This document shows, in pieces, positions 1 through 58,778 of a DNA stretch of 64,000 bases. Positions within the stretch are counted from its first letter, which is position 1. Each line of letters opens with the position of its first letter. The stretch comes from Balanoglossus misakiensis. Its lineage: Eukaryota > Animalia > Hemichordata. The stretch lies in assembly GCA_040954595.2 (NCBI GenBank), contig CM082591.2:5301009-5365008 (forward strand), in the 5' to 3' direction. Below the pieces are notes generated by a model. The model was not told where the DNA came from. It was given only the letters and a program-made list of their open reading frames with translations, and did not search any database. Both the position numbers and the translations under genes were made by a program.

Positions 1-3000
1 TTTCATTTGAATATAGTAGATAAACCGCCCAACCATTAACAATGTGTAATTAAATTTTTTCGAATTTTCCACAAATCATAAAAAGGTTTCTTTAAAACGA
101 TAAGAAGTCATATCTTGAAGAAAACATATTTAAATAAAACATATGGTTTCATAATCCTATAAGCCTCATTAGCTGGAATCAATTGCTCACTATACCGATA
201 CTATAGTAGCCCACAACGGTCACATAGTCGACAAATGCATTCGAGACTCACAACCCAAAAGTATATGTACATACAATATATTGTGTTATTAAACCGAATA
301 TTGGACATTATATCGTCCTTTTGAAATTGAGTTAAACAAGACGCCGCAGTTGATAATAAAAAAATCATAATGAAAATAACAGAAACAACTTATGTACTTC
401 AAGATACAGGATTTGTAAAAACAACAATTTTTCATTAAATTCATAATTTCTCCCAAGTAACCGAGATTCTTGTAAATTTATGTAAGGATACTATTTTTTG
501 CGAAAAATTTAATAAATGATAATTCATACACAGTAATATTTATCTCCTAATTAGTATGTTTTTAAAAAAAAAACCTTTAAATATATTTGAATACAATTGA
601 AAATTTTACAATTTCTTTTCTCTGTTAATAGAGGATGCTATAGTTTTGTAAGTGTGAATGCTATCAGTTTGGCAGATGGCTCGATATTTTACACTGTTTA
701 TGCATGCGTACAAATGGCAGAGACCATCTGCATATTCTTACGTCTAGATCCTCTTGTAATTTTAGTAATTGAAATAAGTAGGTTCGCAACTGCATAAATT
801 ATCGCGAGAACCTGTGTAAGAGGAGCTATGTATATTGTATATAGCTGTCTACGATTTGAAATACTTGCAAACAGAAAAGCTATCTTAGCCCAATTTTACA
901 AAGTTAACATCGCCAAGCAATGTAAAGACTGCGCACTAAAGTATCATATCAGGTTGCTTTTAAACTTTCATAAGTGTTCGCATCTTGAGTTTCTGGAGAT
1001 AGAGACGCGTACACAGCTTCCGTCCCATCGGCCACTGCAGCGTTTACATTTACATGTCCGGATTGGGCTTGATCATAGCCAGTCGTCGCTTGTGAAACGG
1101 AGGGGTCAGATTGCAGGTCTCCTAAATCTATGTCGGGCCCATTCCCTGAGGCTTGTTTAGCAGCATCCTGATTATCATGTGGTTTTCTTCCCCGCTTATG
1201 GCGACAGTGTCTTATTCCAAACAATAATCCAACCAGCAAAGCAGCTGTGAGAATGCCGAGAAAGAATCCGATCACCACCCCTACAAAGCCGGTAACAGAC
1301 GGGACATCTGTGTTATCAAATGTAGTATGCGTTGCAACAACGGTTTTCTCAGAGTGTGTTCCTGTTGATGGTACGGTTGTTTCTGTGGATATGGTCGTTA
1401 TTGTTGGGACCACATTATTTCCCTTGACTGTTGAAGATAACGGGACAGTCTGGTCTACGTCACGGATGTTTAGTACCCTTACCCCCAACGATGTCCCTTC
1501 TGCGTTGGTGGCCACGCAGGAATACGAACCCGAGTCTGCCATTTCAACGGATGAGATCAGGAGGCTCCCGTTGTCAACCTGAACCAACTTTTCATGCGAA
1601 CACGCATTCTGCATTTGAGGGTATACAGCCTCCCCACCAGGGGTGAGCCAATATTTAAATGGGTCTGGTACACCTACTACGTCACAATCCAGAGTTACAT
1701 CGTCACCCACGTCGGTGATTATCACTTCGAATACTGTCACAGTGCTAAATACCGGAAGTGGACAACACGTCATGTTGTCCGGTGGTATTTGCAATAACTC
1801 ACGTCCTGCAAGATGATCTGGTGAATTACACACCGTTGGTAAATATCCCAAATTCAATCGATGACTGTTGTCATCCAGCCACAGTCTGAAATCTCGTAAA
1901 CGGCAGTCACACGACCAAGGATTATCGTTAATGTATAAATAACGTAATTTGTCAAGTCCATGGAAAATGTTGCCCGGTAAAGTTGTGATGTCGGTACTGT
2001 ACATATCCAGTCGCTGCAGGTGACCTAAGCCAGCGAATATTTTCGATGGCAAAGTCATAATTGGGTTTCTAAATAAGTAGAGGTAAACCAAATTCGTTAA
2101 CCCATTAAAAACGGTTTCGGGTAGTATAGTTAGTTGATTATCGTACACATACAACGTATTCAAATTTCCCAGGCCCCGAAATAAGTTTTTAGGCAATGCA
2201 TTAATTTGATTGCTGTGTAAATAAAGAGTGCGAAGATTTGTCAATCCATCAAATAAATTTTTAGGTACACACGTTAATTTATTACCAGACAAATAAATCG
2301 TTTCGATGTCTGTCAGTTCATGGAAAATTCTTTCTGGCAAATGGGTGATTTGATTACCATATATGTAAATGGTTCTTAGTTTGGATAGATCCTTGAAAGT
2401 GTTCTCTTGAAGTGTCTCGATACGGTTGGACCACAGTTGAAGATAAGTTAAACTGTTCAGACCAATGAATGCATCTTCGGCTATATAGTAAATTCTGTTT
2501 CTAAACAGCTCTAGCCGTATCAATTCTGAATAGCCGAGAAATGATCCACTTTCAATTCTAGTTATTTTGTTGTGATTGAGTGCAAGTATAGTTGTGTTGT
2601 ATGGTACATCTGAAGGGATTTCCGTCCAGCCTCGGTAATTACAATTGACATCCGTGCCCGAACAAGAGCAGTTTGTTGGACATCCTTGAGTTTGCCGAAG
2701 TAGTGATAAAGCACAGAAAATGAAACCCAGTCCACACAGATATGACATGTCGATGAGTGATGGAGTACTCTGTGGGCAGAATATAATATATATTCAGTTA
2801 TTTTCACATAATTTCTTTAGTTATGTACCGTTCTTAAGATGTCATGGTGGTATTTATTGCGGGTTGTGTGCATTGAAATTGTTGCTGATACACACGCATT
2901 CGATCTATGAATGAAATGATCTTGCACAACAACACACTTTGAAAATCAGTCGTTGTCTGCAAGATTTGAATGATTTTAATATTCTGGCAAATGTCACGGA

Positions 3001-4135
3001 ATATACAGCGTTTTATGTGGGCTGGTGCAGCTCACTGGTTTTCTTTGGAGATGATGAATAAAGTAGTCTTTTCCGGGTTCAAAGGTCCGTGACCGAAGGA
3101 TGACAATAGGTACAATACCAGGCTGTGTGCCGATATGAGGTGTGCCGATATAACAAGACGTGCTTAGGCTTGGTAAACAATGGCGGATCTCTTTCACTCT
3201 CTTCTCACCCAGACACATTTAAGAAGGAATAGAAGCAGATATGACGTTTGTTTGGGGCTCTGGCACAAATAAGCAATTTGCCAAAGATGCAAAATAGAAC
3301 TCAAGACGTATCAAGAAGTGGTTTATACAAGCCGTCGTTGAGACGTGCACAGCGGTTTCGTGCATACAAAACCGAGTGTCGTGTCCAAAGTGGGTAATAG
3401 CACCCGACGGAACAGTCAGATGTTCCAGCTTAAAAACGGGCAAACCTGTTAATTTGATCATTTTGGTATCATGAATGCGACAGCAAATAGTTTGCCAGAC
3501 AGATATTTTGTTGTTGACACTGACTCATAGCTCTGGCGTGATTCTAATGTCCACAGATGACCAGTTCCATTTGCCAATTCATGCGTAACCAAGTTGTTTA
3601 CAAGGGCGCATTGAAAAGTGGAATTTTGCATTCCCCTAATTTTGTTTATACTCGTAGGCTATATGAATAAAAGCCAAAATTCATTTAATATTCGCGCTTC
3701 ATCTTGTTGTCACATACAATCTCAACTGAAATCGCTGCATGTGATAAACTTACATAGTGATAGAGTTTATGCTGGTATGGTTGGAAAACAGATCTGATAA
3801 TGCTCAACGACAACAAAAATACTTACGTTGACGATTTGTATAATGAATGACAAAATTTTAACTGTGTGGGTAAATGTGGGTAAGACTTACCCTACAATGT
3901 TTCAATGTGCTTAGACACAATCCAGCTTATGCCAGTGTTCTTAGATAGACTCGTGACTGTCCCTGTGCGGTGCTGTCGGCAAGTTTTTTTCTATAAAGGG
4001 TGGGGCAACAAGCATTAGGTAAATGGGAGCAATTATTCACTTTCATGACCCCATGTCATGACGTTTACATCCTGGTATTTCGCGGGGATGAATTTACCAT
4101 GATTTGAAAGTGAACTTTTGAAACAAGTAAACCAC
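1..4135. repeat. Segmental duplication unit containing A1
   Basis: Base 1 (tttcatttgaatatagtagataaaccgccc) recurs at ~4783 and ~14304; homology runs through the gene to aagtaaaccac (~4135, ~8914, ~18567). Confidence 0.92.
949..2748 (-). CDS. LRR-Ig-TM receptor, type A copy 1 (A1); VLR-like/LRRIG-type ectodomain
   Basis: 599 aa ORF: signal peptide, LRRNT (CPTNCSC..C), 9 LRRs mostly of 24 aa plus NPWSCDC LRRCT, Ig domain (VTLDC..W..DSGSYSC), Thr-rich stalk, TM (VVIGFFLGILTAALLVGLLFGI), tail ending YASL-x9-YESL. Confidence 0.95.
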   Translation of the reverse strand: MSYLCGLGFIFCALSLLRQTQGCPTNCSCSGTDVNCNYRGWTEIPSDVPYNTTILALNHNKITRIESGSFLGYSELIRLELFRNRIYYIAEDAFIGLNSLTYLQLWSNRIETLQENTFKDLSKLRTIYIYGNQITHLPERIFHELTDIETIYLSGNKLTCVPKNLFDGLTNLRTLYLHSNQINALPKNLFRGLGNLNTLYVYDNQLTILPETVFNGLTNLVYLYLFRNPIMTLPSKIFAGLGHLQRLDMYSTDITTLPGNIFHGLDKLRYLYINDNPWSCDCRLRDFRLWLDDNSHRLNLGYLPTVCNSPDHLAGRELLQIPPDNMTCCPLPVFSTVTVFEVIITDVGDDVTLDCDVVGVPDPFKYWLTPGGEAVYPQMQNACSHEKLVQVDNGSLLISSVEMADSGSYSCVATNAEGTSLGVRVLNIRDVDQTVPLSSTVKGNNVVPTITTISTETTVPSTGTHSEKTVVATHTTFDNTDVPSVTGFVGVVIGFFLGILTAALLVGLLFGIRHCRHKRGRKPHDNQDAAKQASGNGPDIDLGDLQSDPSVSQATTGYDQAQSGHVNVNAAVADGTEAVYASLSPETQDANTYESLKAT

Positions 4136-5732: not shown

Positions 5733-7526
5733 TTATAAACTTTCATAACTGTTCGCATCCTGGGTTTCTGGAGATAGAGACGCGTACGTATCTTCCGTCC
5801 CATCGGCCACTGCAGCGTTAACATATACCTGTCCGGATTGGGCTTGATGGCCGCTCTTCAGTTGTGAATCGTGGACATAAGATTGTAGGTTTCCTAAATT
5901 TATGTCGGCCCCTGTTGGCGTTTCTGCCTTAGACGCTTGTGCAACAGTATCTCGGTTATCATGTGGTCTTCTTCCCCGCTTATGGCGACAGTGTCTTATT
6001 CCAAACAATAATCCGACCAGCAAAGCAGCTGTGAGAATGCCGAGAAAGAATCCGATCACCACCCCTACAAAGCCGGTAACAGATGGGACATCTGTGTTAT
6101 CAAATGTAGTATGCGTTGCAACAGCGGTTTTCGCAGGGTGTGTTCCTGTTGATGGTACGGTTGTTTCTGTGGATGTGGTCATTATTGTTGGGACCACATT
6201 ATTTCCCTTGACTGTTGAAGATAACGGAACAGTCTGGTCTACGTCACGGATGTTTAGTACCCTTACCCCCAACGACGTCCCTTCTGCGTTGGTGGCCACG
6301 CAGGAATACGAACCCGAGTCTGTCATTTCAACGGATGAGATCAGGAGGCTCCCGTTGTCAACCTGAACCAACTTTTCATGCGAACACGCGTTCTGCAGTT
6401 GAGGGTATACAGCCTCCCCACCTGGGGTGAGCCAATATTTAAATGGGTCTGGTACACCCACTACGTCACAATCCAAAGTTACATCGTCACCCAAGTCGGC
6501 GATTATCACTTGGAAGAATGTGTTGAATACCGGAAGTGGATAACACGTCATGTTGTCCGGTGGTATTTGCAATAACTCACGTCCTGCAAGATGATCTGGT
6601 GAATTACACAACATTGGTGAATATCCCAAATTCAATCGGTGACTGTTGTCATCCAGCCACATTCTGAAATCCCGTAAACGGCAGTCACACGACCAAGGAT
6701 TATTGTAAATGTATAAATAACGTAAGTTGTCAAGTCCATGGAAAATCTTTCCCGGTAAAGTTGTGATGTCGGTATTGTACATATGCAGTTGCTGCAGCTG
6801 ACCTAAGCCAGTGAATATTTTCGATGGCAACGTTTTAAGTGGGTTTAGATGTAAGGTGAGGGATAGCAACTCCGTTAACCCATTAAAAATGGTTTCTGGT
6901 AGTGCTGTAAGTTGATTATTGTATATGGACAACGTATTCAAATTTCCCAGGCCCCGAAATAAGTTTTTTGGCAATGCATTAATTTGATTTTCGTATAAAT
7001 AAAGAGCGCTAAGATTTGTCAATCCATCAAATAAATGTTCAGGTACACACGTTAATTTATTACCAGACAAATGAATCACTTCGATGTCTGTCAGTTCATG
7101 GAAAATTCTTTCTGGCATATGGGAGATTTGATTACTATTTATGTAAATGTATCTTAGTTTGGATAGATCCTTGAAAGTGTTCTCTTGAAGTGTCTCGATA
7201 CGGTTGGACCACAGTTGAAGATAAGTTAAACTGTTCAGACCAATGAATGCATCTTCGGCTATATAGTAAATTCTGTTTCTAAACAGCTCTAGCCATATCA
7301 ATTCCGAATAGCCGAGAAATGATCCACTTTCAATTCTAGTTATTTCGTTGCTCCAAAGTCTAAGTATAGTTGTGTTGTATGGTACATCTGAAGGGATTTC
7401 CGTCCAGCCTCGGTTACCACAATTGACGTCCGTGCCAGAACAAGAGCAGTTTGTTGGACATCCTTGAGTTTGCCGAAGTAGCGATAAAGCGCAGAAAATG
7501 AAACACAGTCCACACAGATATGCCAT
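5733..7526 (-). CDS. LRR-Ig-TM receptor, type A copy 2 (A2)
   Basis: 597 aa ORF with the same architecture as A1; tail contains YVN and YASL-x9-YESL. Confidence 0.95.
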   Translation of the reverse strand: MAYLCGLCFIFCALSLLRQTQGCPTNCSCSGTDVNCGNRGWTEIPSDVPYNTTILRLWSNEITRIESGSFLGYSELIWLELFRNRIYYIAEDAFIGLNSLTYLQLWSNRIETLQENTFKDLSKLRYIYINSNQISHMPERIFHELTDIEVIHLSGNKLTCVPEHLFDGLTNLSALYLYENQINALPKNLFRGLGNLNTLSIYNNQLTALPETIFNGLTELLSLTLHLNPLKTLPSKIFTGLGQLQQLHMYNTDITTLPGKIFHGLDNLRYLYIYNNPWSCDCRLRDFRMWLDDNSHRLNLGYSPMLCNSPDHLAGRELLQIPPDNMTCYPLPVFNTFFQVIIADLGDDVTLDCDVVGVPDPFKYWLTPGGEAVYPQLQNACSHEKLVQVDNGSLLISSVEMTDSGSYSCVATNAEGTSLGVRVLNIRDVDQTVPLSSTVKGNNVVPTIMTTSTETTVPSTGTHPAKTAVATHTTFDNTDVPSVTGFVGVVIGFFLGILTAALLVGLLFGIRHCRHKRGRRPHDNRDTVAQASKAETPTGADINLGNLQSYVHDSQLKSGHQAQSGQVYVNAAVADGTEDTYASLSPETQDANSYESL

Positions 7527-9476: not shown

Positions 9477-11693
9477 TCAGATTTCTTGCAAATCTATATC
9501 AAATCTCTGCTCAGCTGCTGGCTCGACTGTTCTTGGTTTTCTGTCCTCAGACGTAACATCGACTGTGTTGCCTTGGTTGTCAAAACTCACTGAAAAGCTA
9601 CCATGTTTTTCGTAAGTATTTTGAATCACTTTGCGGCGACAGTAGCGGACCGCAAATAGTATTCCCATCGCTGCCAGAGTCGCGAGAACTCCCAGAAAGA
9701 ATCCGAGCACGGCCCACACGAGATCAGAATTTCTCGTGTTTTCCATTGTTGTGCTGGAATGGTTCCCGCTGATGTGTGTGCTTTTGAAGGGTCTCTCGGT
9801 GTCTGCTCCCCCTTCTGTCGCGGATTCTGTAACTGCAGGTACATTACCCTCCGTTACATGCGGGACTTTTGTGCTACTGAATGACACGGTTGCCGTGGTG
9901 ATTGCCAGTGGCATGGTTGTTTTGGCCAACGTTTCCCCAGCCGTTCTAACCTCAGTTGTCGAGACTATAGATGACAGTGTTTGAGATCTACCTGAAGTTC
10001 TCAATAATGAACTACTCTGTTCTGTATAAGTTACTGTGGATGGTTTATGTGATGTTAACGGCGTTGTTCTTTCTATGTAACTTATCGTGGTTGGTAAATC
10101 AGGTGTTGATGTGAATGGAGTGGTATGTTCCATATGACTATTTGTTGATGTCATTGCTAATGTTGTTAACGGCGAAGTCTGTTCTGTGTAACCGAGATTT
10201 AGTATTCTTACACCCACAGACGTTCCCTGTGAGTTCGTCGCGACGCAAGAATACGAACCCAAATCTGACATCTGTACGTTTTGAATGAAGAGGCCCCCGC
10301 CATTTGTACGACCCGTGCTTTCATTCGGACACGTATCTTGCGATGGTAGGCGTACAACCAAACCTGGTGGAGTAATCCAGTATTTATCTGGATCGGGCTC
10401 GCCAACTACGTCACAATCCAAAGTCACGCTGTGCCCTATGTCTGTGGTTAGTGTTCTAACCGGCGTGACGAATACCGGAAGTGGATAGCAAGTAAGATTG
10501 TTCAGTGGTATTTGCAGCACATTCTCTCCCACGTGGGTGTCTGGGGAATCACAAGTCATAGCTGTAGAACCATAGTAAAGTCGGCCATCATTATCCATGA
10601 GCCACGCTTTAAGGTCTTTCAAACGACAGTCACATGACCAGGGATTGTCGTAGAGGTATAAGTAATCTAAGTCATCAAGACCATCGAACACAGTACTCGG
10701 TAGAGTTGTGAGGCTGTTATTTTGTAGGTACAATTTATCCAATTGGCCCAAACCTTGGAATATTTTCAGCGGTAACGTTGTTAATGCATTGAATTCCAAA
10801 TACAGCTGGCTCAACATATTCAACCGTTCGAAAATGTTCTCTGGCATTGACTTTAACGGGTTTCTGCTCAAAGTGAGAAACTGCAGCTCTACCAAGTCAT
10901 CGAATAGCCGTCCAGGCAACGTGGTGATCTTATTAGAGTTTAGATACAGTTTCTCCAGACTTGATAGTCCGCTGAACAGATCGGCTGCTAGGCACGCCAG
11001 TTTATTGCTGGCTAGGTGAAGAGTTTGAAGATGTGCGAGTCCGCGGAAGATACCCGCGGGTAAGTGTGTGATTTGGTTATTGTATGCGTAAATAGCACTT
11101 ATGTATCTCAGGTTAGTAAAGAGGTCCTCCCGGAGCGTCGTGAAGTTGTTGTTGTTTAGACCAAGAGTCTCAATTTCACCAAGGCTCTCGAATATTCCTT
11201 CCGGTAGGACACTCAGCTGAGTGAAACTGACGCTCAGGGATCGTATTTTGCCTAGGCCTTGGAAGATTTGTTGTGGCAAGGAACCCAGGCCATTTCTGTA
11301 CACGTTAAGGTGCAACAGCTCGTGCAGACCGTGGAATATAGTCTCCGGCAACGACGATAGCAAGTTCTCGTTGATGTGGAGAGACTGCAGACGATTAAGT
11401 CCAGCGAACGCATCTTCGCCCATGTAGGTGATGTCATTGTGGTCCAGATGCAATTCCAAAAGTTGAGGATATCCCAGAAAGGAGCCGTTCTCCACGCGAG
11501 TTAGGTGGTTGTAGTTCAGTTTCAGAATGGTCGTGTCAATCGATATGTTGGCTGGGATCTCTCTCAGTTGCCGGTAACTGCAATCGACGCGGGTTTGAAA
11601 GCATGAACAATTGGCTGGACACCCTTGGTTCATTGGCAATAGTGTCACAGTGGAAAATAGCAAATAAACGCCACATACAAATAGGTATGCCAT
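9477..11693 (-). CDS. LRR-Ig-TM receptor, type B copy 1 (B1)
   Basis: 738 aa ORF: signal peptide, LRRNT, 12 LRRs plus LRRCT, Ig domain, long Ser/Thr mucin-like stalk, TM (LVWAVLGFFLGVLATLAAMGILFAV), short tail with no YxxL pair. Confidence 0.95.
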   Translation of the reverse strand: MAYLFVCGVYLLFSTVTLLPMNQGCPANCSCFQTRVDCSYRQLREIPANISIDTTILKLNYNHLTRVENGSFLGYPQLLELHLDHNDITYMGEDAFAGLNRLQSLHINENLLSSLPETIFHGLHELLHLNVYRNGLGSLPQQIFQGLGKIRSLSVSFTQLSVLPEGIFESLGEIETLGLNNNNFTTLREDLFTNLRYISAIYAYNNQITHLPAGIFRGLAHLQTLHLASNKLACLAADLFSGLSSLEKLYLNSNKITTLPGRLFDDLVELQFLTLSRNPLKSMPENIFERLNMLSQLYLEFNALTTLPLKIFQGLGQLDKLYLQNNSLTTLPSTVFDGLDDLDYLYLYDNPWSCDCRLKDLKAWLMDNDGRLYYGSTAMTCDSPDTHVGENVLQIPLNNLTCYPLPVFVTPVRTLTTDIGHSVTLDCDVVGEPDPDKYWITPPGLVVRLPSQDTCPNESTGRTNGGGLFIQNVQMSDLGSYSCVATNSQGTSVGVRILNLGYTEQTSPLTTLAMTSTNSHMEHTTPFTSTPDLPTTISYIERTTPLTSHKPSTVTYTEQSSSLLRTSGRSQTLSSIVSTTEVRTAGETLAKTTMPLAITTATVSFSSTKVPHVTEGNVPAVTESATEGGADTERPFKSTHISGNHSSTTMENTRNSDLVWAVLGFFLGVLATLAAMGILFAVRYCRRKVIQNTYEKHGSFSVSFDNQGNTVDVTSEDRKPRTVEPAAEQRFDIDLQEI

Positions 11694-13809: not shown

Positions 13810-13866
13810 ATGGCGACGCCGTGCGCGGGAGGGAATTTGACAGGATTCTTCGCGCTATTTCTCTGA
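13810..13866 (+). pseudogene. Truncated copy of exon 1 (signal peptide) of SRCR-WSC-CUB-CCP receptor 1
   Basis: ATG..MATPCAGGNLTGFFALFL* matches MATLCAGGILTGFFALFL at 23535; similarity stops at the duplication breakpoint. Confidence 0.8.
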
Positions 13867-15262: not shown

Positions 15263-17182
15263 TTATAAACTTTCATAAGTGTTCGCATCCTGGGTTTCTG
15301 GAGATAGAGACGCGTACGCAGCTTCCGTCCCATCGGGCATTGCAGCGTTTACATATACGTGTCCGGATTGGGCTTGATGGCCGCTCTTCAGCTGTGAACC
15401 GTGGACATAAGATTGTAGGTTTCCTAAATTTATGTCGGCCCCTGTTGGCGTTTCTTCCTTAGACGCTTGTGCAACAGTATCTCGGTTATCATGTGGTCTT
15501 CTTCCCCGCTTATGGCGACAGTGTCTAATTCCAAACAATAATCCAACCAGCAAAGCAGCTGTGAGAATGCCGAGAAAGAATCCGATCACTGCCCCTACAA
15601 AAAGTGGATTGGCGATCTTCATGTCAGCAGCAGTTTCAGCCGTTTCCTCGGTGACAGACGGGACATCTGTGTTATCAAATGTAGTATGCGTTTCAACAGC
15701 GGTTTTCGCAGGGTGGGTTCCTGTTGATGGTGCGGTTGTTTCTTCGGATGTAGACATTATTGTTGTGTCAGCCTGTCCTGTCGTTGGGATTCCATTGTTG
15801 GTCGGCTCTGTCGTTGGAATCACATCGTTGACCTCCTTTGTTGTTGGGGCCGCACTGTTTCCCATGACTGTCGAAGTTAACGGAACAGTCTGGTCTACGT
15901 CACGGATGTTTAGTACCCTTACCCCCAACGACGTCCCTTCTGCGTTGGTGGCCACGCAGGAATACGAACCCGAGTCTGTCATTTCAACGGATGAGATCAG
16001 GAGGCTCCCGTTGTCAACTTGAACCAACTTTTCATGCGAACACGCGTTCTGCAGTTGAGGGTATACAGCCTCCCCACCAGGGGTGAGCCAATATTTAAAT
16101 GGGTCTGGTTCACCAACTACGTCACAATCCAATGTTACATTGTCACCCACGTCCGTGATTATCACTTCGAATTCTGTGCTGAATACCGGAAGTGGATAAC
16201 ACGTCATGTTGTCCGGTGGTATTTGCAATAACTCACGTCCTGCAAGATGATCTGGTGAATTACACATCATTGGTGGAGATCCCAAATTCAATCGGTGACT
16301 GTTGTCATCCAGCCACATTCTGAAATCCCGTAAACGGCAGTCACACGACCAAGGATTATTGTAAATGTATAAATAACCTGAGTTGTCAAGTCCATGGAAA
16401 ATCTTTCCCGGCAAAGTTGTTATGTCGTTATTGTACATATGCAGCCACTTCAGCTGACCTAAGCCAGTGAATATTTTCGATGGCAAGGTTTTCATTGGGT
16501 TTTGACCTAAGTTGAGGTATGTCAACGTCGTTAACCCATTAAAAACGGTTTCGGGTAGTATAGTTAGTTGATTATCGTACATATACAACGTATGCAAATT
16601 TCCCAGGCCCCGAAATAAGTTTTTAGGCAATGCATTAATTTGATTGCTGTGTAAGTAAAGAGCGCGAAGATTTGTCAATCCATCAAATACATTTTCAGGA
16701 ACACACGTCAATCTATTATGAGCCAAATGAATCCTGTCGATGTCTGTCAGTTCATGGAAAATTCTTTCTGGCAAATGGGAGATTTGATTATTATGTATGT
16801 GAATGTCTCTTAGTTTGGATAGATCCTTGAAAGTGTTCTCTTGAAGTGTCTCGATACGGTTGGACGCCAGGTGAAGAAAAGTTAAACTGTTCAGACCAAT
16901 AAATGCATCTTCAGCTATATAGTAAATTCTATTGCCATGCAGGTCTAGGTGTAGCAATTCTGAATAGTTGATAAAGGATTCGCTTTCAATTCTAGTTATG
17001 TCGTTGTTGTAGAGTAAAAGTTTGGCTGTGTTGTATGGTACATCTGAAGGGATTTCCGTCCAGCCTCGGTTACCACAATTGACGTTCGTGCCAGTACAAT
17101 AGCAGCTTGTTGGACATCCTTGAGTTTGCCGAAGTAGCGATAAAGCACAGAAAATGAAACCCAGTCCACACAGATATGCCAT
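15263..17182 (-). CDS. LRR-Ig-TM receptor, type A copy 3 (A3), long-stalk variant
   Basis: 639 aa ORF with type A architecture; about 42 extra residues in the stalk; tail YVN and YASL-x9-YESL. Confidence 0.95.
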   Translation of the reverse strand: MAYLCGLGFIFCALSLLRQTQGCPTSCYCTGTNVNCGNRGWTEIPSDVPYNTAKLLLYNNDITRIESESFINYSELLHLDLHGNRIYYIAEDAFIGLNSLTFLHLASNRIETLQENTFKDLSKLRDIHIHNNQISHLPERIFHELTDIDRIHLAHNRLTCVPENVFDGLTNLRALYLHSNQINALPKNLFRGLGNLHTLYMYDNQLTILPETVFNGLTTLTYLNLGQNPMKTLPSKIFTGLGQLKWLHMYNNDITTLPGKIFHGLDNSGYLYIYNNPWSCDCRLRDFRMWLDDNSHRLNLGSPPMMCNSPDHLAGRELLQIPPDNMTCYPLPVFSTEFEVIITDVGDNVTLDCDVVGEPDPFKYWLTPGGEAVYPQLQNACSHEKLVQVDNGSLLISSVEMTDSGSYSCVATNAEGTSLGVRVLNIRDVDQTVPLTSTVMGNSAAPTTKEVNDVIPTTEPTNNGIPTTGQADTTIMSTSEETTAPSTGTHPAKTAVETHTTFDNTDVPSVTEETAETAADMKIANPLFVGAVIGFFLGILTAALLVGLLFGIRHCRHKRGRRPHDNRDTVAQASKEETPTGADINLGNLQSYVHGSQLKSGHQAQSGHVYVNAAMPDGTEAAYASLSPETQDANTYESL

Positions 17183-44117: not shown

Positions 44118-47100
44118 TTATTCGTCACTTGTTTGCACTGCGGTAGTTTGCATCTCTTTTTCACCGACGTCAACATCGTACTTCTTCTTCGATTTCCTGA
44201 AGTAAAAGCAAGACCGGAAAGTGGTATAACACATTTGATTGATAATAAGATGACATAACATATATGAACACATTCTGACATGCCTGTCAATATATATTTT
44301 TTATATTGATTGATTGATAATTTATGTATGATAAATAATTAATACCAATCAATTAATTAACTAATTAATAAAGTTATTCTCGTTTATTAATTAATGAATT
44401 AATTAATTCATCCAATTAACGAGAATTAATTATTTTACTAATTCTCGTGTTAAATTAAAGAAATGGAAACCTAAAAAGTTTGGATGGATAATTTTATGTT
44501 TTGAGAAAATTACTTTTCTTACCTTTTGCAGATGATAATCACTAATATTATAATAAGGAGAAGTGCCGCCAGTATAACCAATATTATCGCAACTATTACA
44601 CCTAAAGTGAGATATATGAGGAATAATCACAATTTATTATGTCGACAACATTAATTCTGAAACAAACTAGTAGATTATGTGCCCAGGCGAAGCCTTTACC
44701 AAAATATCATCAAAAATGTTTAATTCACACAGATCTGGAAATACACAAGCCTCGCACAAGTTACTTGTCAGAATATATAAATCAAGCAGAAATCAATTTA
44801 AGTAAGGTATTTTAGTACCTACCTGCTCCAAGCCGGGATTTGGATGATCCGACTTCTTGCGTTGGTTTGACGTCATCTGAAACAAAATAAAAATCAAGTG
44901 TCACAAGTGTCATATATGTGCATGTTTCATTACGAGAAGATCAATGTTGTGATTGTCTGGGGTATTCTCGTGTTTAACCTGTATGATTTGTTTTGAATAT
45001 TATAAACAGCTATGAAATACCTAACTTATATATCATCAGTCGTTTTATAATGACCCTCAACAAGCGAGCCCTTCTATTTGTGTTTGCCTTCCTATATAAT
45101 GAATGTTCATGATGCCAACCCATCATCAATCTTATCGATTGCAAAGAAATAACGGAGAAGTTGCCATACATAGAAATATGATATTGAACCCCACACTGAC
45201 CAATCATATTATCAGTAAGGCGTTTGATTTCCTATGAACACAGATCATGAGTAATTGCACGTGTGTTATGTATATAATCATGTCCATTGCACCTACCAAT
45301 CTTAGAACAAGCAGGCTTTTCCTTCCAGACTTCACCCTCCTCACAAATGACCACGACACTTTCCTTATTCTGGTAGCCCTCTAGGCAGTAGTAATAGACG
45401 AGTGTGTCGTTATCAAGAGACATGTTGCCAATGTGTTCTGCATTTTCGACCACGCCTGGGTTGCCACACCCTAGATGACACATGGTCAAAACAGAAATAA
45501 AAATACTTAGACAAACTCTGAATTTGAAGATTGCTTAAGGAAATGCGTAAATCAGGGTTAGATGTACTGCGTTGTTGCCCACAAGCACACTCCCTTCTCT
45601 GTTTTGAAACTGCCGCGTATCAAACTACTAAAATCTAAAGGGCGACGCATCGTGTTTAATACAGAAACTTTCAAACATGTGCTGTGTATGTTGCATGCAG
45701 TAAACAGAGAATTTTGCACACTCGCGGGTCTTACCAATCTTAAGACATTCGGGTTTCGTTGTCCATTCTCCGTTCTCCTGACAAAGTATGGTGTTGTTCT
45801 CGTTGCTATAGTAACCTTCTTGGCAGCTGTAGACAACAGTGCCATTATATGTGTGGTCGTCGCCATCTTTGTCCGCATTCTCAACAGTGCCCGGATCGCC
45901 ACACCCTATGATCAGATATATATAAATACATGTCAATGGAAATGTGATATGTATTGTATGCCTTGGGGAACCAATATTCGGGGATATTTCTTATAATGTT
46001 GATATTTGTGAATATTTGTCATTAGCTTTAGTTTAACATAGAAACCGACATACCGTGCTGTTATGTTAAATAGATGGTGTGCTTGCACATGGTCAACGAA
46101 TCACAAACTTTTAACTATAAACACTCTGTATTACCTATTTGTCTGCATGGAGATTTGTCTGTCCAAGTGGCATCTTCTGTGCACGTTATATCGCCACCAC
46201 CGGCATATCCGTCTTGACACGTGTACTTTACCTTGCTGGAGTAAGTGAACGACGTACCCTCTCTGTCTGCATTCTGCACGCTGCCAGGATCGCCACAGTC
46301 AACAGCTGTTGGTTGGTGAATTATCATTAGGTAAATACATGATCTCACTTGCGTTGAAATTGTTCAACAACGTGGTTATAAAAAGTGTGTCTCTCCCTCC
46401 CCCAAAAACAGATTTGAAGAACGGCGAGGGAGGTGAATTGATTGTAATATCACAAGTGAAACTCGCGCGTACATCCATATGCAAATGATAAACTGAGTCA
46501 GTGCTACAGTGTAACCGAAATTACAGTTTCTCAGGAAAGCTTGGCGCCAACTCTTTCATCCAGCTGTTACATTGTAGTCATTCAGTGTCCCTTGGTGTCA
46601 CGTACGCAACATAGTTTCGAAAATATCAGGGTGAGAATCGGTGTCTTTGCCTCTATAGGTAAATGTTATTTTGATACATGAAAGAAAATTCACGGTTTCG
46701 CCAATGTTCAATGAATGCAAGTATGCTTAACCCTCAAAACACGCTTGTTGGCGACTGTTTCTATAATATTCAGTCTTACCTGTACAGTTTGGGAATGTGT
46801 CGCTCCAGGCTCCGTTCTCTTGACACGTCACAGTGTTGTGGGTGGTAGTTAGATTGTAGCCAGGGTGACAGCTTATTGAAATGTTGTCGCCGGCGTTAAA
46901 TGGACAGGTGTGAGACATGTCAAAATTCTTTGTCGTACCCACGTCCGCCGGAAACGTGCAATCAGATTGCAAATCTGTATCAGAAAGGAGATTACAATGT
47001 GGGAACGAACTTGTGTTATGAAAACTCAACGACAGATAAGAGACACAAAAACGGGCAAACCAATTACCAATAAATAAATAAATAAATGTAATATTATTTA

Positions 47101-49542
47101 ATTTAAAGTAGCAATCGCATTCACCTGTGACCTCAATAACAAATTTCCTCCCAGTCTCCTGGCTGCTCCTAGAGAACATGAAAACTTCACTGGAGCACGA
47201 CGTAACAACTGCGCCATCAACCGACAACTCAAACAGTCCACCGTGAAAGTTTTCAAATATCCGCAGCTGTGAGTCGAGGGTTTCGGCCGGCTCCATGAGA
47301 ATGAAATTCAGCTTAACCGAGTTCGTGTCCGCCAAATGGATGTTCCAGAAACAGGCGGTGTCCGCGGAAATGTTGCCAGGGTAACCGGGAGAGTAGATGG
47401 TTGTTGGTTCAGTGATGCTACCGCCGCAGGCACCGATATTTGCTGAAATGGATAAACGAGAAATCAGCAGAAATCGATCGGTGATTTTTAAAAACAAGAC
47501 AATAAGTACCCTAGCTGTATTCCTCTTTTGCAGGAAAATAATCATCTCATGCTGACATTTATCACAGAATATTGAAAGATTTGGAGAAATGTTTTTCTAG
47601 AAATCTGCCTCTCCCCCACCGACCTACAACATCAACCCTTTTACCCCAGTTCCCTCTTTAGAGGTCCAACTTTACCATAGAAAACGATGAATTTGGACCA
47701 AACCATGGAGGTTAAAGGGTTAAACTAAATGTCATACTTGAATAAACTGACACGTGTTTCTCTCCACCGCACACGCTGCTGCTGTCGCCGTCGCATCTTG
47801 TACTACACTTATCCCAATATTCAGTATCCCCCCAGTAAGACGCCTCATCGCTCCCACAATAGCAGTACGTTGCATTCCTCAGTCCAGCGTAGGGTTTCCC
47901 CACGCCCCGGCAGTAGCTTAGACATCTCTGGATGGTCATGTCGTCCAGTTCGAACTCATCACCCGGCAGGACTACGCCATCTTCGTCACTAGCAAAGCAA
48001 CCTTTGTAACCATCGACTTATTATTGCAAAGAAAAAGAAAAACAGAATATTGATCATAACTTGTCTTTATCTAAAACAGGATAATTTTAACACAATAAAT
48101 TTAACGATTTCAGGAATCCGTCCGAATGCAGTATAAAGGATGACAACTATAGTACAGATGCAAATTGCAGACATAAAAATACTTGTTCCTTCTGGCCTTG
48201 CTGCATTATGTTACAGTAAAATTCAATGTCTAAGTGCAGATAATTCAGAGTAATCTGATGTTCTAGCTGTATGTGAAATCACTGAGCCATACATAGTATA
48301 TCAGCGGGAGACGTGTTTTGGACTATAGCAAGGCCAGTGTTCACATTCTCATGTTTGAAACTTAAACCATGATTGTCGACATAAGGTTAACGCTGGTGTC
48401 AGTGGAGTCAGTCCAGACTCCAGTTAAGTTATGCGATTATTACTTGTCTCTCCTAACAGAATAGGTCACTTCCGTGACCTCTATGTTAGCTTACATCTTG
48501 TACTTCCGTTGGCATGGGGTTGTCAAAATTCATCAGTTTCGGACAGGAAACGTATCAAAGTTTCTTGACAAAGAGCCACCTTTGTAATTTAGTATATACT
48601 ATAATTTGTTGACTAGAGGTTTTATAGAGGTTTTTGTAAACCGGAAGTACGAGGTTGTAAGGTCATGTACGGGTCATAAAATGGCTTCTTATATGAAACG
48701 TATCATTACTTACAATTACACTTGACTACGGCTGAGTTGGGGCAGTCTGGGTGCATTTTGTAATAACAGTCGGCAATGGACGATTCATTGCCAATACACG
48801 CCACGTCTATCACCCGTTGACGATCGTCATCGACGAGGAAACGATGCGCACTGCCGGAATACATTGCTCCGGGTCGCCCTGGGCAACAAAAGTGAACAAA
48901 TCCAGATTGCTAAACACGCATATTAAAGGAAGTAATAACGTTCCAGTTTGAAAAAAACACCTGGTAAAATTGAGTAAAAAAGCTGAAGCATGCTGTGGTC
49001 AAACACTCCAGGGACTTGTTTATTCAGACCTCCGTAGTCTCCGTTACCGAGACCATTGAACGATTTGTAAAACAAAATGGCCGCTGTCAGGATTTCGGAT
49101 CTGGATAACCGAGAAAAAGACCTACCCAGTTCTTGACAAACAACGTTTCCATCAATCCAGTCAGATTTCCAGTAGCAAACAGGAGTCCACCCGGTTTCAT
49201 TTCGATACATTTGCACTTTTCCTTCATATCTGTCGTTTCCATACACCAGCCGAACATTTTCACCAGCGTCTGTTGGAGGAAGGAGAAATAATCATTCTTT
49301 TATTCTCGCGTATCAATAAAACAACGACCTAGAAATACATCCACACATATCTGTTTACAACAAATCATGAAAGCTATAGGTTACACTATGTAATGTCCAC
49401 TGGCTGTGTGGTCAAATATTCAATCACTGACCAACTATCAACTGTAAATGTGATTCTTACCTGTCTTCTTATCCATAACCATGATGAAAAACAGCGCCAA
49501 AAGAGTCACCAGTTTTATCCCCTTAACACACACAATCCCCAT
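44118..49542 (-). CDS. SRCR-WSC-CUB-4xCCP-TM receptor 3 with a very short tail (spliced)
   Basis: Signal 49461-49542; SRCR 49126-49269 and ~48713-48877; WSC 47738-48016; CUB 47125-47442; CCP ~46780-46974, ~46134-46305, ~45735-45905, ~45297-45469; linker 44823-44876; TM 44523-44601 (VIVAIILVILAALLLIIILVIIIC); tail 44118-44196 KSKKKYDVDVGEKEMQTTAVQTSDE*. Confidence 0.83.
48470..48680. mobile_element. MITE family X, copy 2
   Basis: tgacc..ttacatcttgtacttccg ... ccggaagtacgaggttgtaaggtcatgtacgggtca. Confidence 0.65.
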
Positions 49543-52988: not shown

Positions 52989-55900
52989 ATGAACCATCAA
53001 CGCCTCATACTTATATCTCTAATTACAGCATTGCTTTGCAGTGTCATTTATTCAGGTAAGACTCTGTGACTTATATTTGGAAAGGGTTTTCACATACATG
53101 TATGGACGGGTTGTATTAATCAAAACACACCATGATTCTATTGTGAAAATATCGCATTGGGCGTGTATTACTTGCACAGCACATAACTGCAGGACATCAA
53201 TTAACTTCTGATTCTTATTTCCTTTGTATATTCCAATCTCTCTGTGTGTTTTGTATGCCTGTCTGTCTGTCTATCTGTCTTTACAAGACACTGCAAGGGT
53301 CAGACTCGCTAATGGGCCATTGCCCTATCAGGGCGAGGTAGAGGTGTACAAGGCAAGCAGTCGCCAATGGGTGCCAGTATTGTACCCAGGTGTTGGGAAC
53401 TACTCAAAATGGAGCTTCACCAACTCAGAAGTAGTTTGCGAGGAATTGGGTAGGGAGAATTGCAACATTAATCCATTTCGCTTTATTGCAACAATGCTGT
53501 GTTCAAACTTCATTGAACACAAACGACTTGTTCAATTTCACGCCCCATACTCATTATGCAGGTAATAGTCCATACGTTGTAATAATGACGACAACAATTT
53601 TATGTTTATGTTAGAAATTAACTGTTATCTCTTACTGTTAAATATGTTGACCTTCTTTTACTTGACATTTGATATCCATTGCACAATCAACACCTACAGG
53701 ACACCAAGGAGCTATGTGGAAAGGATCAAAACAAATCTCATGTTTCGGTGAGACCTGCCTCTTCAATGTTGCTTGCAATGGCAACGAGGAATCCCTTCTT
53801 CAATGTTCATATCACACTGGTACTTGTCCGAGAGAAACAGCTGTCGCTGTCGTAAGATGTAACTGTAAGTCTTTTCACGACCATCATATTAAAATATGTG
53901 TATGTATGTATGTATGTATGTATGTATGTATGTATGTATGTATGTATGTATGTATGTATGTATGTATGTATGTATGTATGTATGTATGTATGTATGTATG
54001 TATGTATGTATGTATGTATGTATGTATGTATGTATGTATGTATGTATGTATGTATGTATGTATGTATGTATGTATGTATGTATGTATGTATGTATGTATG
54101 TATGTATGTATGTATGTATGTATGTATGTATGTATGTATGTATGTATGTATGTATGTATGTATGTATGTATGTATGTATGTATGTATGTATGTATGTATG
54201 TATGTATGTATGTATGTATGTATGTATGTATGTATGTATGTATGTATGTATGTATGTATGTATGTATGTATGTATGTATGTATGTATGTATGTATGTATG
54301 TATGTATGTATGTATGTATGTATGTATGTATGTATGTATGTATGTATGTATGTATGTATGTATGTATGTATGTATGTATGTATGTATGTATGTATGTATG
54401 TATGTATGTATGTATGTATGTATGTATGTATGTATGTATGTATGTATGTATGTATGTATGTATGTATGTATGTATGTATGTATGTATGTATGTATGTATG
54501 TATGTATGTATGTATGTATGTATGTATGTATGTATGTATGTATGTATGTATGTATGTATGTATGTATGTATGTATGTATGTATGTATGTATGTATGTATG
54601 TATGTATGTATGTATGTATGTATGTATGTATGTATGTATGTATGTATGTATGTATGTATGTATGTATGTATGTATGTATGTATGTATGTATGTATGTATG
54701 TATGTATGTATGTATGTATGTATGTATGTATGTATGTATGTATGTATGTATGTATGTATGTATGTATGTATGTATGTATGTATGTATGTATGTATGTATG
54801 TATGTATGTATGTATGTATGTATGTATGTATGTATGTATGTATGTATGTATGTATGTATGTATGTATGTATGTATGTATGTATGTATGTATGTATGTATG
54901 TATGTATGTATGTATGTATGTATGTATGTATGTATGTATGTATGTATGTATGTATGTATGTATGTATGTATGTATGTATGTATGTATGTATGTATGTATG
55001 TATGTATGTATGTATGTATGTATGTATGTATGTATGTATGTATGTATGTATGTATGTATGTATGTATGTATGTATGTATGTATGTATGTATGTATGTATG
55101 TATGTATGTATGTATGTATGTATGTATGTATGTATGTATGTATGTATGTATGTATGTATGTATGTATGTATGTATGTATGTATGTATGTATGTATGTATG
55201 TATGTATGTATGTATGTATGTATGTATGTATGTATGTATGTATGTATGTATGTATGTATGTATGTATGTATGTATGTATGTATGTATGTATGTATGTATG
55301 TATGTATGTATGTATGTATGTATGTATGTATGTATGTATGTATGTATGTATGTATGTATGTATGTATGTATGTATGTATGTATGTATGTATGTATGTATG
55401 TATGTATGTATGTATGTATGTATGTATGTATGTATGTATGTATGTATGTATGTATGTATGTATGTATGTATGTATGTATGTATGTATGTATGTATGTATG
55501 TATGTATGTATGTATGTATGTATGTATGTATGTATGTATGTATGTATGTATGTATGTATGTATGTATGTATGTATGTATGTATGTATGTATGTATGTATG
55601 TATGTATGTATGTATGTATGTATGTATGTATGTATGTATGTATGTATGTATGTATGTATGTATGTACCTCACGTTTTCAGACAGTTGCACAATGGCTGAA
55701 ACCATTTATATACCAATTTTCTTTTCTTTCCAAAATATAGTCGATGACTATCAAGGATGTTTCCAATTTGGCGAAAGCGGGGAAGGCCCCCTTCACATCC
55801 GGGAAAACATGACAATCCAAATGTGTCTTGAACATTGTCGCAATACGTCCATCTTAAATTCCACGTACGCTGGTTTACTTGGAGGTAACATGTGTCACTG

Positions 55901-58252
55901 TTTGCCAGAAAGTCAATACAGATCCCTTGTTAAGGTATCAAACGAGTTTTGCATTGAACCGTGCAGTGGTGACGTCCGTGGTTGGACAAACTGTGGAGGT
56001 AAAGATCACATTGGAGTATATAAATGTAAGTCAAGTGTTCATGACATATTCCGTTTTTCTTAAGTAGGCCTACTTAAAATTTGATACATTTCTAAGCATG
56101 TTTTGCCCAAGCTATATGAATGACTTTTATCATCACATAAAGAGGCTCTGATTACAGTATACATGCATGAATCCCATTACTCCAGTTTTCTTAATTATAT
56201 GATAAATGGTTATTGAAAAGTATAATAGATTCATAGAAATACTTACAAATTATTATTGCAGCTAGCATGGGGTCATGTGGAGGTAACATTCAGGGTCCAG
56301 GAACGCTGTATTCGCCAGGATTTCCGGGTTCTTACCCTGATAACATGAACTGCGTCTGGGAAATAAGTTCTCCACCTCGCACAGTGCTCACGATGGAATT
56401 CATCGTCTTTGTTGTAACTGAAGGAGTTCACAATGTGACAGTCTATGAAATGTACCAAGGGAATTACAGGGAATTACTGATGCAAGATTCGTTGGTGCTC
56501 CAGTCATGTTCAAACCGTGTCAGTCTACACTTCAATTCGAAAATCAGCCATTTTGGTAGCAGCTACATAGCGAGATTTGCTCTCACGTTCAAAGGTACGT
56601 GTCAACAGTTTGCCCACGAAATTATCTCATTAAGATATTATGTAAACATACATTGCTTTTATATTTGTCTTGATAAAGAGCATTCTTCTTTTATTTATAG
56701 TATAAAATCATCTTAAACATTCTTCAGGCCCACGCCAGTTCCTTCTAAGAAAACATAAATCATATACTACATACATGAGTACTGTGTACTTTCCAAATGA
56801 CCCCTAAATGACCTGACATCCTCGTACTTCCGTTGGTAAGAATCCATTAGTTGACTTAAACCTCTACAAAAACTGCACAGTTGCAGCTATTCTCAAAAAA
56901 ATATGTACTAAACTACCTATATGGCTACATTTCAAACAATATTTCAAACGTTGTTTATCTAAAACTGAATTATGGCAACCGACTACCAACGGAAGTACGA
57001 GGACGTAAGGTCATGTTGGGGTCATGAAAGTAACCTATTATGTTTCTTCTAAGGTATACCATCGTGTCTCTTACCATTGGGTATTGAAAATGAGGCGTTG
57101 ATCTTCAATGAATCTTGTCCATACTTCCATGGTGATGTCATCACTTTCACCTGCCGGCCTGGACACAACATGACCGATTCATATAATAGTATTGAATGTC
57201 AAGAAGACGGACATTGGAATGACTCCGTCCCTCAGTGCTCAGGTAAAAAATAAACATGTTCTGATTCATTTTAAAACAATACAATTACAATTTATTTACA
57301 TGATTGAATGGGCATGTCTATACTTTAAATTAACATTTGGCGGCACACTTTTTTGCGTGGATACCTTGCGAAAAACTGTTGCTGGCTAGATTCCTACTTT
57401 CCCTGGTAAAGTCCCTAACCCTAATCGCGAAACATACGTTTTGATTCCAAAAGGAGTAAATTTGTTGTAACTATTTCTTGTGCGTTTTATGCACAGCCGA
57501 ATTGTTACCTGCACCTCCAGTTATAAACTCGGAAGCAGATATAACGACATCCTTTGGAAATACAATTGGTAAGATTTATTTATGATTAAACACCCTTAGA
57601 TATATATAAGAATCATGTAGTAATATGCTTGTGTGTAAGCTTAATGTGTTCTGTTCTGATAATGACAACATGAAGACTTAGATTAAAACCCAGTCGTCCA
57701 GCGTCTGAAACTACTGATCCAAATAATGCTTTAAAATTTGGCATGCAAGGTTCTTAGGGGTACCTTAATATACATTTGTTAAAACTGTGTGCTTGTCTTT
57801 ACACATTTTTAATTTTGTGGCAGGTTTTGCCGGTATAAAAAATCCTCTCTGGAACTGCTTTTCTGTTACTTTGATATTTGGTACGCCATTTAATTCTGAA
57901 GCAGTTATCTTGTTTATAATGCGAATGTTTAATGCATACATGTGTGCTACAAATCACAGTTGCTTGAAGTCAGCACAGATGGGAGGTTAGGTCTGGGAAA
58001 ACGCATGGTGTAACAATCTTGTAACAATCAACTCGTTCACTGACAGTTCATGTGTTTTTGCAGGTCCAATCATTGTTGTAGTAACATTGATTCTGATCAT
58101 TGCGGCATGGCTCTTGGCGGTGTACTTAGGTACATCAGGGTGAGTTTGAGTTGACATTTAGCAAAGCAAATTTATTTTTGGCATCACGATGCAAACATCA
58201 TACAATTAACAGATGATGATGATGGTGATGGTGGTGGTGGTGGTGATGCTCG

Positions 58253-58342
<90 letters not shown>

Positions 58343-58778
58343 GTACTCACGTTTATCTTGCAGCCCAAGGGGGCACCCTACGGGCAACAGACACCCAATC
58401 AGAAAGGAGGACACACTACAATCGAATGAACCCACCAGCCGCCTGGGGCGTGGTCAGACTCAATTGGCAGATGCCAGAGCAGATTACGGTCACGTGGTGA
58501 AATATTCTCAGGAACGCAGCTGTGCTTCTGCCGAAGACCACGTCACCCAGTGGGTGTGGCAGTGCGCAGACTCCGCCAGTGCTTCGGAAAAGGACATTGA
58601 CAGCATTGAGAATTATGAGGACTCGGTTGTAGATGAAACTCTTAATATTGGCACCGAATCGAATGATTCAGTGTTTAATTTTCAACATTTTGACACCTGC
58701 GATGTTGTTGTGGCCATCGCACACGAGGTTGCTGTTAGCCCTTCGGATGGTGTTCACTCGTGCGCAGATGTGGAATAG
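52989..58778 (+). CDS. SRCR-WSC-CUB-1xCCP-TM receptor 4 (spliced)
   Basis: Signal 52989-53055 (MNHQRLILISLITALLCSVIYS); SRCR 53288-53449 and 53700-53864; WSC 55741-56025; CUB 56262-56594; CCP 57054-57242; linker 57497-57568; TM 58064-58139; tail 58364-58778; phases consistent. Confidence 0.85.
53899..55666. repeat. Perfect (TATG)n microsatellite, ~1.77 kb, intronic
   Basis: Uninterrupted tatg repeat between the second SRCR exon and the WSC exon. Confidence 0.99.
56797..57026. mobile_element. MITE family X, copy 3
   Basis: atgacccc..atgacctgacatcctcgtacttccgttggta ... taccaacggaagtacgaggacgtaaggtcatgttggggtcat. Confidence 0.72.
58212..58340. repeat. (GAT)n/(GGT)n microsatellite, intronic
   Basis: Trinucleotide run just upstream of the acceptor at 58363. 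Confidence 0.97.

Follow-up and report, generated by a model that had tools for sequence, protein, structure and literature searches.

The window, that is, the whole 64,000-nt stretch of Balanoglossus misakiensis DNA analysed here, contains no N letters and holds nine receptor-type genes in two structural families, as the sequence-only reading had claimed. Five are intronless (single-exon) LRR-Ig-TM open reading frames, all on the minus strand: A1 (949..2748, 599 aa in one coding exon), its tandem copy A2 (5733..7526, 597 aa), a third A copy, A3 (15263..17182, 639 aa, with a longer stalk), B1 (9477..11693, 738 aa) and its copy B2 (19131..21347). The four others, R1 (23535..31819, plus strand, 10 exons), the 5′-truncated R2 (39426..42246, plus), R3 (44118..49542, minus, 12 exons) and R4 (52989..58778, plus, 9 exons), belong to an SRCR-WSC-CUB-sushi-TM family; their models stay open, and every junction has an AG acceptor and a GT donor except for one GC donor. 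The two families are unrelated, the best cross-hit having an E value of 0.23. That all nine are type I receptors holds for the eight with a signal-peptide-like start and not for R2, which starts in mid-CUB after an in-frame stop. The cluster is also looser than claimed: an arylsulfatase B-like, non-receptor gene of 6.3 kb (32656..38980, minus) lies inside the R array and separates R1 from R2, and a single-exon glycosyltransferase-2-like gene (59884..61017, plus) is its right-hand neighbour. B2 and R1 are indeed head-to-head, with 2,187 bp between their ATGs (21348..23534), and so are R3 and R4, 3,446 bp apart; the 2.2-kb gap between B2 and R1 is ordinary spacing, because the neighbouring gaps are equally tight (about 1.95 kb between A and B genes, 0.84 kb between R1 and the sulfatase gene, 3.4 kb between R3 and R4, 1.1 kb between R4 and the glycosyltransferase gene).

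Pfam (applied to A1, B1 and A3), a TM scan and PDB matches place A and B in the LIG (LRR + Ig) superfamily. A1 is built of a signal peptide, LRRNT, 10 LRRs, LRRCT, an I-set Ig domain, a stalk, a TM helix and a tail, and B1 of 13 LRRs, Ig, a long stalk, a TM helix and a 56-aa tail; each has a GxxxG motif in its TM helix, and from ectodomain to tail A and B are about 46% identical. The vertebrate LIG proteins LRRC4/4B/4C (NGL) and LINGO1 have an LRRNT-LRR-LRRCT-Ig ectodomain like that of A and are the closest solved relatives with the full architecture (the PDB matches to the A1 ectodomain cover residues 1–407 for LRRC4/4B/4C and 142–400 for LINGO1). These are neural, low-copy proteins whose tails are not known to have an ITAM-like motif; A, unlike them, is a young, diversifying tandem family. 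The nearest relatives are hemichordate proteins: Glandiceps talaboti XP_077979274.1 and Ptychodera flava XP_070571266.1 and XP_070557209.1 are LRR-Ig-TM proteins, 36–41% identical to A1, which share its architecture and have a Tyr-x12-YxxL/M-x9-11-YxxPhi tail in common, but differ from A in LRR number and carry automatic names (uncharacterized, chondroadherin-like, slit-like). A tree of the LRRCT-Ig region has support on only three of nine branches and does not settle orthology to these relatives. XP_070557209.1 resembles two tandem genes fused. With the C-terminal half of A1 as query, the homologue search had PTK7 as its sole match, which is irrelevant; a profile-free library search with A1 gave mostly long LRR proteins, the LRRCT-Ig unit being present in 5 of the 150 best matches, and none of the window's five LRR-Ig proteins nor the glycosyltransferase (0/6) is present in the protein collection searched.

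Among the R genes, R1 encodes a signal peptide, a split SRCR-like domain, WSC, CUB, two sushi domains and a TM helix; R3 and R4 encode a signal peptide, a probable SRCR domain, WSC, CUB, four (R3) or one (R4) sushi domains and a TM helix; and R2 is left with half a CUB, two sushi domains and a TM helix. The putative SRCR domain, absent from R2, is split over two exons; its first half scores 26.5 in R3 (cut-off 26.1) and 19.3 in R4, and its second half, the part scanned in R1, gave no profile match there. No SRCR/WSC remnant was found upstream of R2, which is likely a pseudogene or a signal-anchored fragment. The scanned R open reading frames have no Ig match, and the models leave no room for such a domain. 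WSC and CUB are shared with Kremen1/2 (available part of PMC3927612), but the R genes have neither a kringle match nor a kringle exon and so lack the kringle-WSC-CUB combination of Kremen. The echinoderm SRCR superfamily is alike in make-up, in that SRCR is there combined with WSC, CUB and sushi domains in tandem arrays, as in R; in the sea urchin SRCR genes often have sushi, WSC and CUB domains and 70% are in tandem (PMC10855680, in the portion at hand). The order SRCR-WSC-CUB-sushi-TM followed by a long tail of repeated [DE]N-x-x-Y was not met in the sequence and literature searches made: a WSC-profile search gave 46 matches, no entry of which lists SRCR, CUB or sushi and those bearing names are fungal, and the ectodomains of R1, R3 and R4 had no match at E 1e-5 among the library proteins searched. 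Because no R relatives were found, the role assigned below to this family follows domain analogy.

By sequence comparison, the five LRR-Ig genes descend from two ancestors through recent tandem duplication. The duplicated blocks (1–4138/4783–8917 and 6182–13865/15838–23590) are 93% identical, and R2 has lost its 5′ half, so that both the recent duplication and the truncation described earlier stand. The A copies are 82–86% identical (A1/A2 85.8%) and the B copies 96.7%, as against 30–33% for the R genes; in age, the A/B array and the R array are far apart. The end of the 9.65-kb A+B duplication unit falls within exon 1 of R1 and is marked by a dead stub of that exon, 18 codons and then a stop (13810..13866, plus); therefore, B and R1 were not duplicated as a pair, and B1 is intact though the cut left it partnerless. 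Because an acceptor is present upstream of the B ATG, we infer that the 21348..23534 interval must hold the untranslated 5′ exon(s) of B.

ITAM/ITIM-like tails, attributed by the sequence-only reading to several of the genes, are found in five of the nine (A1–3, R1 and R2), while those of B1, B2, R3 and R4 are without ITAM, ITIM or ITSM. A1–3 carry YxxL-x9-YxxL (P 0.001–0.004 against shuffles), the spacing of which lies outside the strict ITAM (YxxL/I-x6-8-YxxL/I) and within the extended ITAM-like definition (x6-12, above chance, conserved); the A-type spacing recurs in Glandiceps P0202 and Ptychodera P0219 and P0135, and both YxxPhi halves are present in three of four tails of the hemichordate relatives. 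A strict ITAM occurs in one tail out of nine, that of the truncated R2 (YEMI-x6-YSKL; 271 aa, 14 Tyr). R1 and R2 have two ITIM ([SIVL]xYxx[IVL]) matches apiece, a number that does not stand out from shuffles (P 0.17 and 0.12), and the seven other tails have none. The acidic R1 tail of 863 aa has 21 Tyr, three YxEI and six [DE]N-x-x-Y, an R1/R2 pattern that was defined after inspection of the tails; the repeat presumably resembles PTB-binding NxxY sites. R3 has a motif-free tail of 27 aa with one Tyr, and R4 a motif-poor one with three. The idea of a decayed ITAM beyond the stop codon of B was dropped, as the tail HMM matched A1–3 only among 2,711 six-frame peptides. Vertebrate paired receptors have near-identical ectodomains and opposing tails, ITIM against activating, or else a charged residue in the TM helix; A and B, about 46% identical, without an ITIM partner and without a charged TM residue, are not a pair of this LRC type.

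With concave positions set in advance as xxLxLxx, a counting method on three A sequences, the pairs of which are non-independent, found differences at 25/50 concave codons versus 17/204 others for A1/A2, 35/50 versus 24/204 for A1/A3 and 35/50 versus 19/204 for A2/A3 (Fisher P 2e-10 to 9e-18). At the concave codons pN is 0.31–0.41 and pS 0.07–0.18 (pN > pS with P 0.005 for A1/A2, 0.024 for A1/A3 and 0.004 for A2/A3), and dN/dS at concave versus other codons is 5.2 versus 0.58, 2.6 versus 0.60 and 3.7 versus 0.40 for the same pairs. The five mask offsets vary in 7–8 of nine repeats, the remaining 19 offsets in 0–3, and beta-strands cover repeat offsets 2–7 in an AlphaFold model of A1, a single-sequence model reliable for the LRR part only (pLDDT below 50 from residue 254). 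B1/B2 have no concave excess (2/65 versus 6/261 differences, P 0.66). On the concave face of the LRRs, diversifying selection of the kind known from TLR arrays and VLRs is found in A1–3 and not in B1/B2; the predicted binding face of A1–3 shows change driven by selection. Sea-urchin TLR arrays, which are tandem families with pseudogenes, are reported to have the same pattern, with positive selection focused on the beta-strands of the concave face (PMC3367398, in the sections available); these receptors signal by TIR, however, whereas A, which has no TIR, carries a dual-Tyr tail and an Ig domain. Non-coding DNA flanking the A copies diverges by 4.0–5.5%. Private A differences are patchy (the tail bin of A1 has 35 and the N-terminal bin of A3 has 29) and pS at the concave codons is about twice the non-coding divergence, which suggests conversion from copies outside the window and leaves the timing of selection loose.

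Some of this signal would be allelic if the A2-B1 and A3-B2 blocks were two haplotypes assembled in tandem, A2 and A3 then differing on the concave face as alleles. The blocks are only about 4% apart in non-coding DNA, the junction at 13865/13866 is bridged by none of the contigs listed, and in run X1 the depth is 31–36 for A2-/A3-type contigs versus 48–54 for A1-type ones, although depth is not copy number. Yet such an artefact is improbable: the junction, in a window without N, breaks off sharply within exon 1 of R1, A1 still shows the selection signal against A2 or A3, and at 11 of 11 positions checked the sample examined (two DNA runs from one sample, containing 69–75% of the window's words) has B-region letters absent from B1 and B2. 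Because these letters match neither copy, three B types are suggested, if the sample is one animal.

We consider it likely, at a probability of roughly 0.6, that two independently expanded arrays adjoin here and that the A genes, with their diversifying predicted ligand face, are variable activating innate receptors. The recognition role proposed earlier for the whole locus is thereby kept for the A subfamily only, which has the concave-face positive selection and an ITAM-like tail conserved in two other hemichordate genera. A would bind fast-changing, probably microbial, ligands through the concave face. ITAMs are phosphorylated by Src-family kinases and then recruit tandem-SH2 kinases of the Syk type; by analogy, receptor clustering would let a Src-family kinase phosphorylate YxxL-x9-YxxL and a Syk-type tandem-SH2 kinase be recruited. 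B, a conserved relative without a signalling motif, may be a decoy, an adhesion partner or a co-receptor. The R genes would represent an SRCR-superfamily array that is old and has a WSC-CUB core like that of Kremen. The long R1 tail, judged by analogy, probably serves uptake or signalling as a docking scaffold with multiple PTB/SH2 sites, and R2–R4 would have decayed or have reduced tails. That the two arrays adjoin is likely incidental or, at most, reflects a shared promoter. The LRR-LRRCT-Ig-TM layout shared with LRRC4/NGL and LINGO1, together with the conservation of B and its want of a signalling motif, would also suit LIG-type molecules of adhesion, neural wiring or gamete recognition, the variable face then being due to co-evolution with a self-ligand or to reproductive co-evolution. 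This is doubtful, however, in that young tandem copies, dN/dS above 1 on one face and a conserved dual-Tyr tail fit immune families better, and the LIG wiring genes of vertebrates are conserved and few in copy number.

A functionally linked complex of the two families, possibly serving allorecognition, had been the central proposal of the sequence-only reading. In an LRC- or FF/FcoR-like version of it, the motif-less B would bind ligand for the Tyr-rich R1 under a shared bidirectional promoter. Acorn worms, to which the nearest named relatives belong, are solitary animals, which speaks against this version, as do the sulfatase gene inside the cluster, the equally tight local spacing and the fact that B is conserved rather than variable. 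Further, the records with the two LRR-Ig relatives in Ptychodera measure 44.0 and 47.3 Mb, while that with the Ptychodera match to the flanking glycosyltransferase measures 63.0 Mb, orthology being tentative, and no new letters were seen at 29 variant sites in a hypervariable 361-bp stretch of A1, a weak point as the one sample that was used is possibly the source animal. In favour of it, motif-less B2 and the 21-Tyr R1 stand head-to-head within 2,187 bp, one such pair with signalling motifs on one partner, as in Botryllus FF/FcoR, where head-to-head pairs have the tyrosine motifs on the FcoR side and a sushi domain in one partner, and DEDVYSEI of R1 comes near the hemITAM definition, with Ile for Leu (PMC12582321, as far as its available text goes). 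Both Botryllus partners are of the Ig superfamily, however, and copy number there changes by pairs (same part of PMC12582321), whereas R1 has no Ig, carries sushi domains and motifs on the same protein, and was cut after 18 codons by a duplication that stops inside its exon 1. Hydractinia Alr likewise comprises clustered TM receptors with a variable ectodomain and a conserved tail, whose x6-12 ITAM-like definition the A tails fit; Alr ectodomains are tandem Ig-like, with allelic polymorphism, and are tied to fusion or rejection (10.1101/2022.03.25.485889, in the portion available), whereas A/B have one Ig behind the LRRs and R none, and the variation seen here is between paralogues in the LRR face. 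With a single adjacency, arrays of differing age, a sulfatase gene inside and a duplication that split B from R1, the linked two-family complex is not supported; neither allorecognition nor functional linkage of the arrays gains support, and the LRC- or FF/FcoR-like version is unlikely. We would give equally little credence to an LRC-like locus outside chordates made of other parts, in which germline-encoded, single-exon LRR-Ig receptors of hemichordates combine a VLR/TLR-like hypervariable concave face and a Syk-type activating tail, form units of variable A and invariant tail-less B, and share one bidirectional promoter with an SRCR-WSC-CUB-sushi docking-scaffold receptor. By itself, co-clustering is nothing unusual in genomes of this kind, short of evidence for synteny and co-expression.

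Hemichordate immune receptors are thinly described, and no account of an A/B-type receptor family was found in the literature searched, largely open-access main texts; the accessible parts of PMC4224339, PMC10210618 and PMC2150770 contain nothing on the A/B or R families or on the exact motif. The A receptor unites tyrosine-based activation with a variable LRR solenoid, modules that usually occur separately, and the A genes can be cloned to test, in a non-chordate deuterostome, whether variable LRR receptors signal in the ITAM manner. Position 1 of the window falls inside a duplication unit, so further copies may be present to its left.

The window, animal DNA of ~39% GC with spliced genes, holds five single-exon LRR-Ig open reading frames on the minus strand, in the order A1, A2, B1, A3, B2, and four multi-exon genes, R1 to R4, all of them predicted gene models. 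The A and B proteins comprise a signal peptide, LRRNT, LRRs (10 in A, 13 in B), LRRCT, one I-set Ig domain, a Thr-rich stalk, a transmembrane (TM) helix and a short tail, an architecture by which they qualify for the LIG superfamily. A GxxxG motif, possibly a dimerisation signal, lies in all five TM helices and in that of the Glandiceps relative P0202. The R proteins share a signal peptide, split SRCR, WSC, CUB, one to four sushi domains, stalk, TM helix and tail, with exon junctions in phase 1 along the ectodomain and phase 2 past the TM helix. R1, R3 and R4 are complete models; R2 begins mid-CUB behind an in-frame stop, and an arylsulfatase-like gene starts 445 bp away. In tblastn searches, neither an R-type exon upstream of R2 nor a further receptor exon right of R4 turned up within the window. 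The TM exon of R1 has a GC donor (28945), and intron 3 of R4 holds a perfect (TGTA)x442 microsatellite of 1,768 bp (53899–55666), a length that assembly may have inflated.

By self-comparison, one duplication unit of 4.8 kb carries A alone and another of 9.65 kb carries A+B; their non-coding DNA has diverged by 4.0–5.5%. Protein identity is 82–86% among A, 97% between B1 and B2, 46–47% between A and B and 30–33% among R, and no similarity is detectable between the LRR-Ig and R families; from identities and units together, the nine genes resolve into two young LRR-Ig lineages and one old array. We give a probability of roughly 0.6 to the reading that a diversifying, likely activating LRR-Ig subfamily adjoins an older scavenger-type array; its interest lies in the selection signal and conserved tail of A rather than in clustering.

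Selection was assessed by a counting method on three A sequences, the pairs of which are non-independent, with concave-face positions (the exposed β-strand residues) set beforehand as xxLxLxx. The A pairs differ at 25/50, 35/50 and 35/50 concave codons and, in the same order, at 17/204, 24/204 and 19/204 other LRR codons; dN/dS is 5.2, 2.6 and 3.7 on the concave face (pN > pS, P 0.005, 0.024 and 0.004) and 0.40–0.60 elsewhere. An earlier four-position mask, with one repeat shifted by one residue, gave a like outcome, and the predicted A1 structure places strands over the masked repeats, in agreement with the mask. B1 and B2 differ at 2/65 concave and 6/261 other codons. The A copies bear signs of mosaic conversion. 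A matching selection pattern is reported for sea-urchin TLR subfamilies (PMC3367398). Judged from sequence, the A subfamily likely behaves as a variable innate LRR receptor.

All three A tails close with YxxL-x9-YxxL (P 0.001–0.004, 2,000 shuffles each, for what is one ancestral motif), which has the extended and not the strict ITAM form; among the nine tails the strict form occurs in R2 only. Together with an additional Tyr 13 residues upstream, the motif recurs in four Glandiceps and Ptychodera tails, three of them with both halves intact, and is absent from the two amphioxus tails compared. Repeated [DE]N-x-x-Y makes up the main feature of two R tails, that of R1 with 863 aa and 21 Tyr and that of R2 with 271 aa and 14 Tyr, NxxY being counted seven times in R1 against a shuffled mean of 1.3 and six times in R2 against 0.9; YxEI/V sites are also present, and ITIM matches are not above chance. 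The sequence-only reading, which saw two clustered receptor families, several members with ITAM/ITIM-like tails, was right about receptor genes of two unrelated families, recent duplication and truncation (seen in R2); however, the tails of B1, B2, R3 and R4 contain no ITAM, ITIM or ITSM match, and a sulfatase-like gene lies inside the cluster.

That reading further proposed that both families form one linked recognition or allorecognition complex, which is unsupported here and appears improbable. A, B and R1 were indeed neighbours before the A+B duplication, because the right end of the unit falls inside the first exon of R1, leaving an 18-codon stub plus stop at 13810–13866; the duplication, however, copied LRR-Ig genes only, and the two families adjoin at a single place. 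The B2/R1 pair resembles the Botryllus FF/FcoR pair in geometry but differs in pairwise duplication and in Ig membership (PMC12582321). No ectodomain of A, B or R matches Hydractinia Alr. Sea-urchin tandem arrays commonly combine SRCR with sushi, WSC or CUB, and the R genes fit these combinations (PMC10855680); WSC and CUB are also shared with Kremen, the kringle of which is missing from R (PMC3927612).

The nearest full-architecture relatives of A1, among matches found, are from Glandiceps and Ptychodera; with the Ptychodera match of the flanking glycosyltransferase they point to a hemichordate, likely an acorn worm. Two LRR-Ig relatives in Ptychodera and that glycosyltransferase match are spread over three records that differ in length, which hints weakly at a dispersed family and a neighbourhood that is not fixed. 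Public gene models P0135 (Ptychodera), P0196 (Branchiostoma hybrid) and P0218 (Acanthaster) contain two LRR-Ig units per protein and are likely fused tandem genes, which would make LRR-Ig arrays widespread in invertebrate deuterostomes. Among the papers listed in literature searches, none describes either family in hemichordates.

Independent reads, seen as contigs only, come from three DNA runs of one sample, possibly the source animal. All three A types are present in it; 29 variant letters are listed for a 361-bp part of the A1 LRR region, every one of them agreeing with A2 or A3, and 11 of 11 checked B-region letters occur in neither B1 nor B2. Contig depth, which is no copy number here, hints at about four A and three B copies and thereby at a copy-number difference between haplotypes. 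No contig among the pieces listed bridges the A+B duplication junction. In run X2, a single contig has A3-like 5′ coding sequence continuous with A2-like upstream sequence (7569/17222), which may reflect a recombinant haplotype or contig building.

Between R1 and R2 lies the arylsulfatase B-like gene (38980–32656, minus strand), with an intact CTPSR motif and an extra acidic exon after the signal-peptide part. The N-terminal metal-binding segment of sulfatases carries two Asp; here it reads MGCSSG, and RGGG aligns opposite RGRK of the human structure, so that the predicted enzyme is possibly impaired in catalysis. One of its introns holds a MITE-like inverted repeat pair (37495–37731; 46-bp, 96% match). 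The intronless glycosyltransferase-2-like gene (59884–61017, plus strand) flanks the receptor cluster; its product shares 70% identity with a protein of Ptychodera flava and 32–41% with the remaining 22 matches, most of the others being unnamed environmental or transcriptome sequences (~40%), and its distribution among the matches found is patchy. A small high-copy repeat, with contig depth in the thousands, lies between A1 and A2 (4330–4500), and a second, unlike short repeat has copies at 35417–35507, 48640–48681 and 56787–57038.
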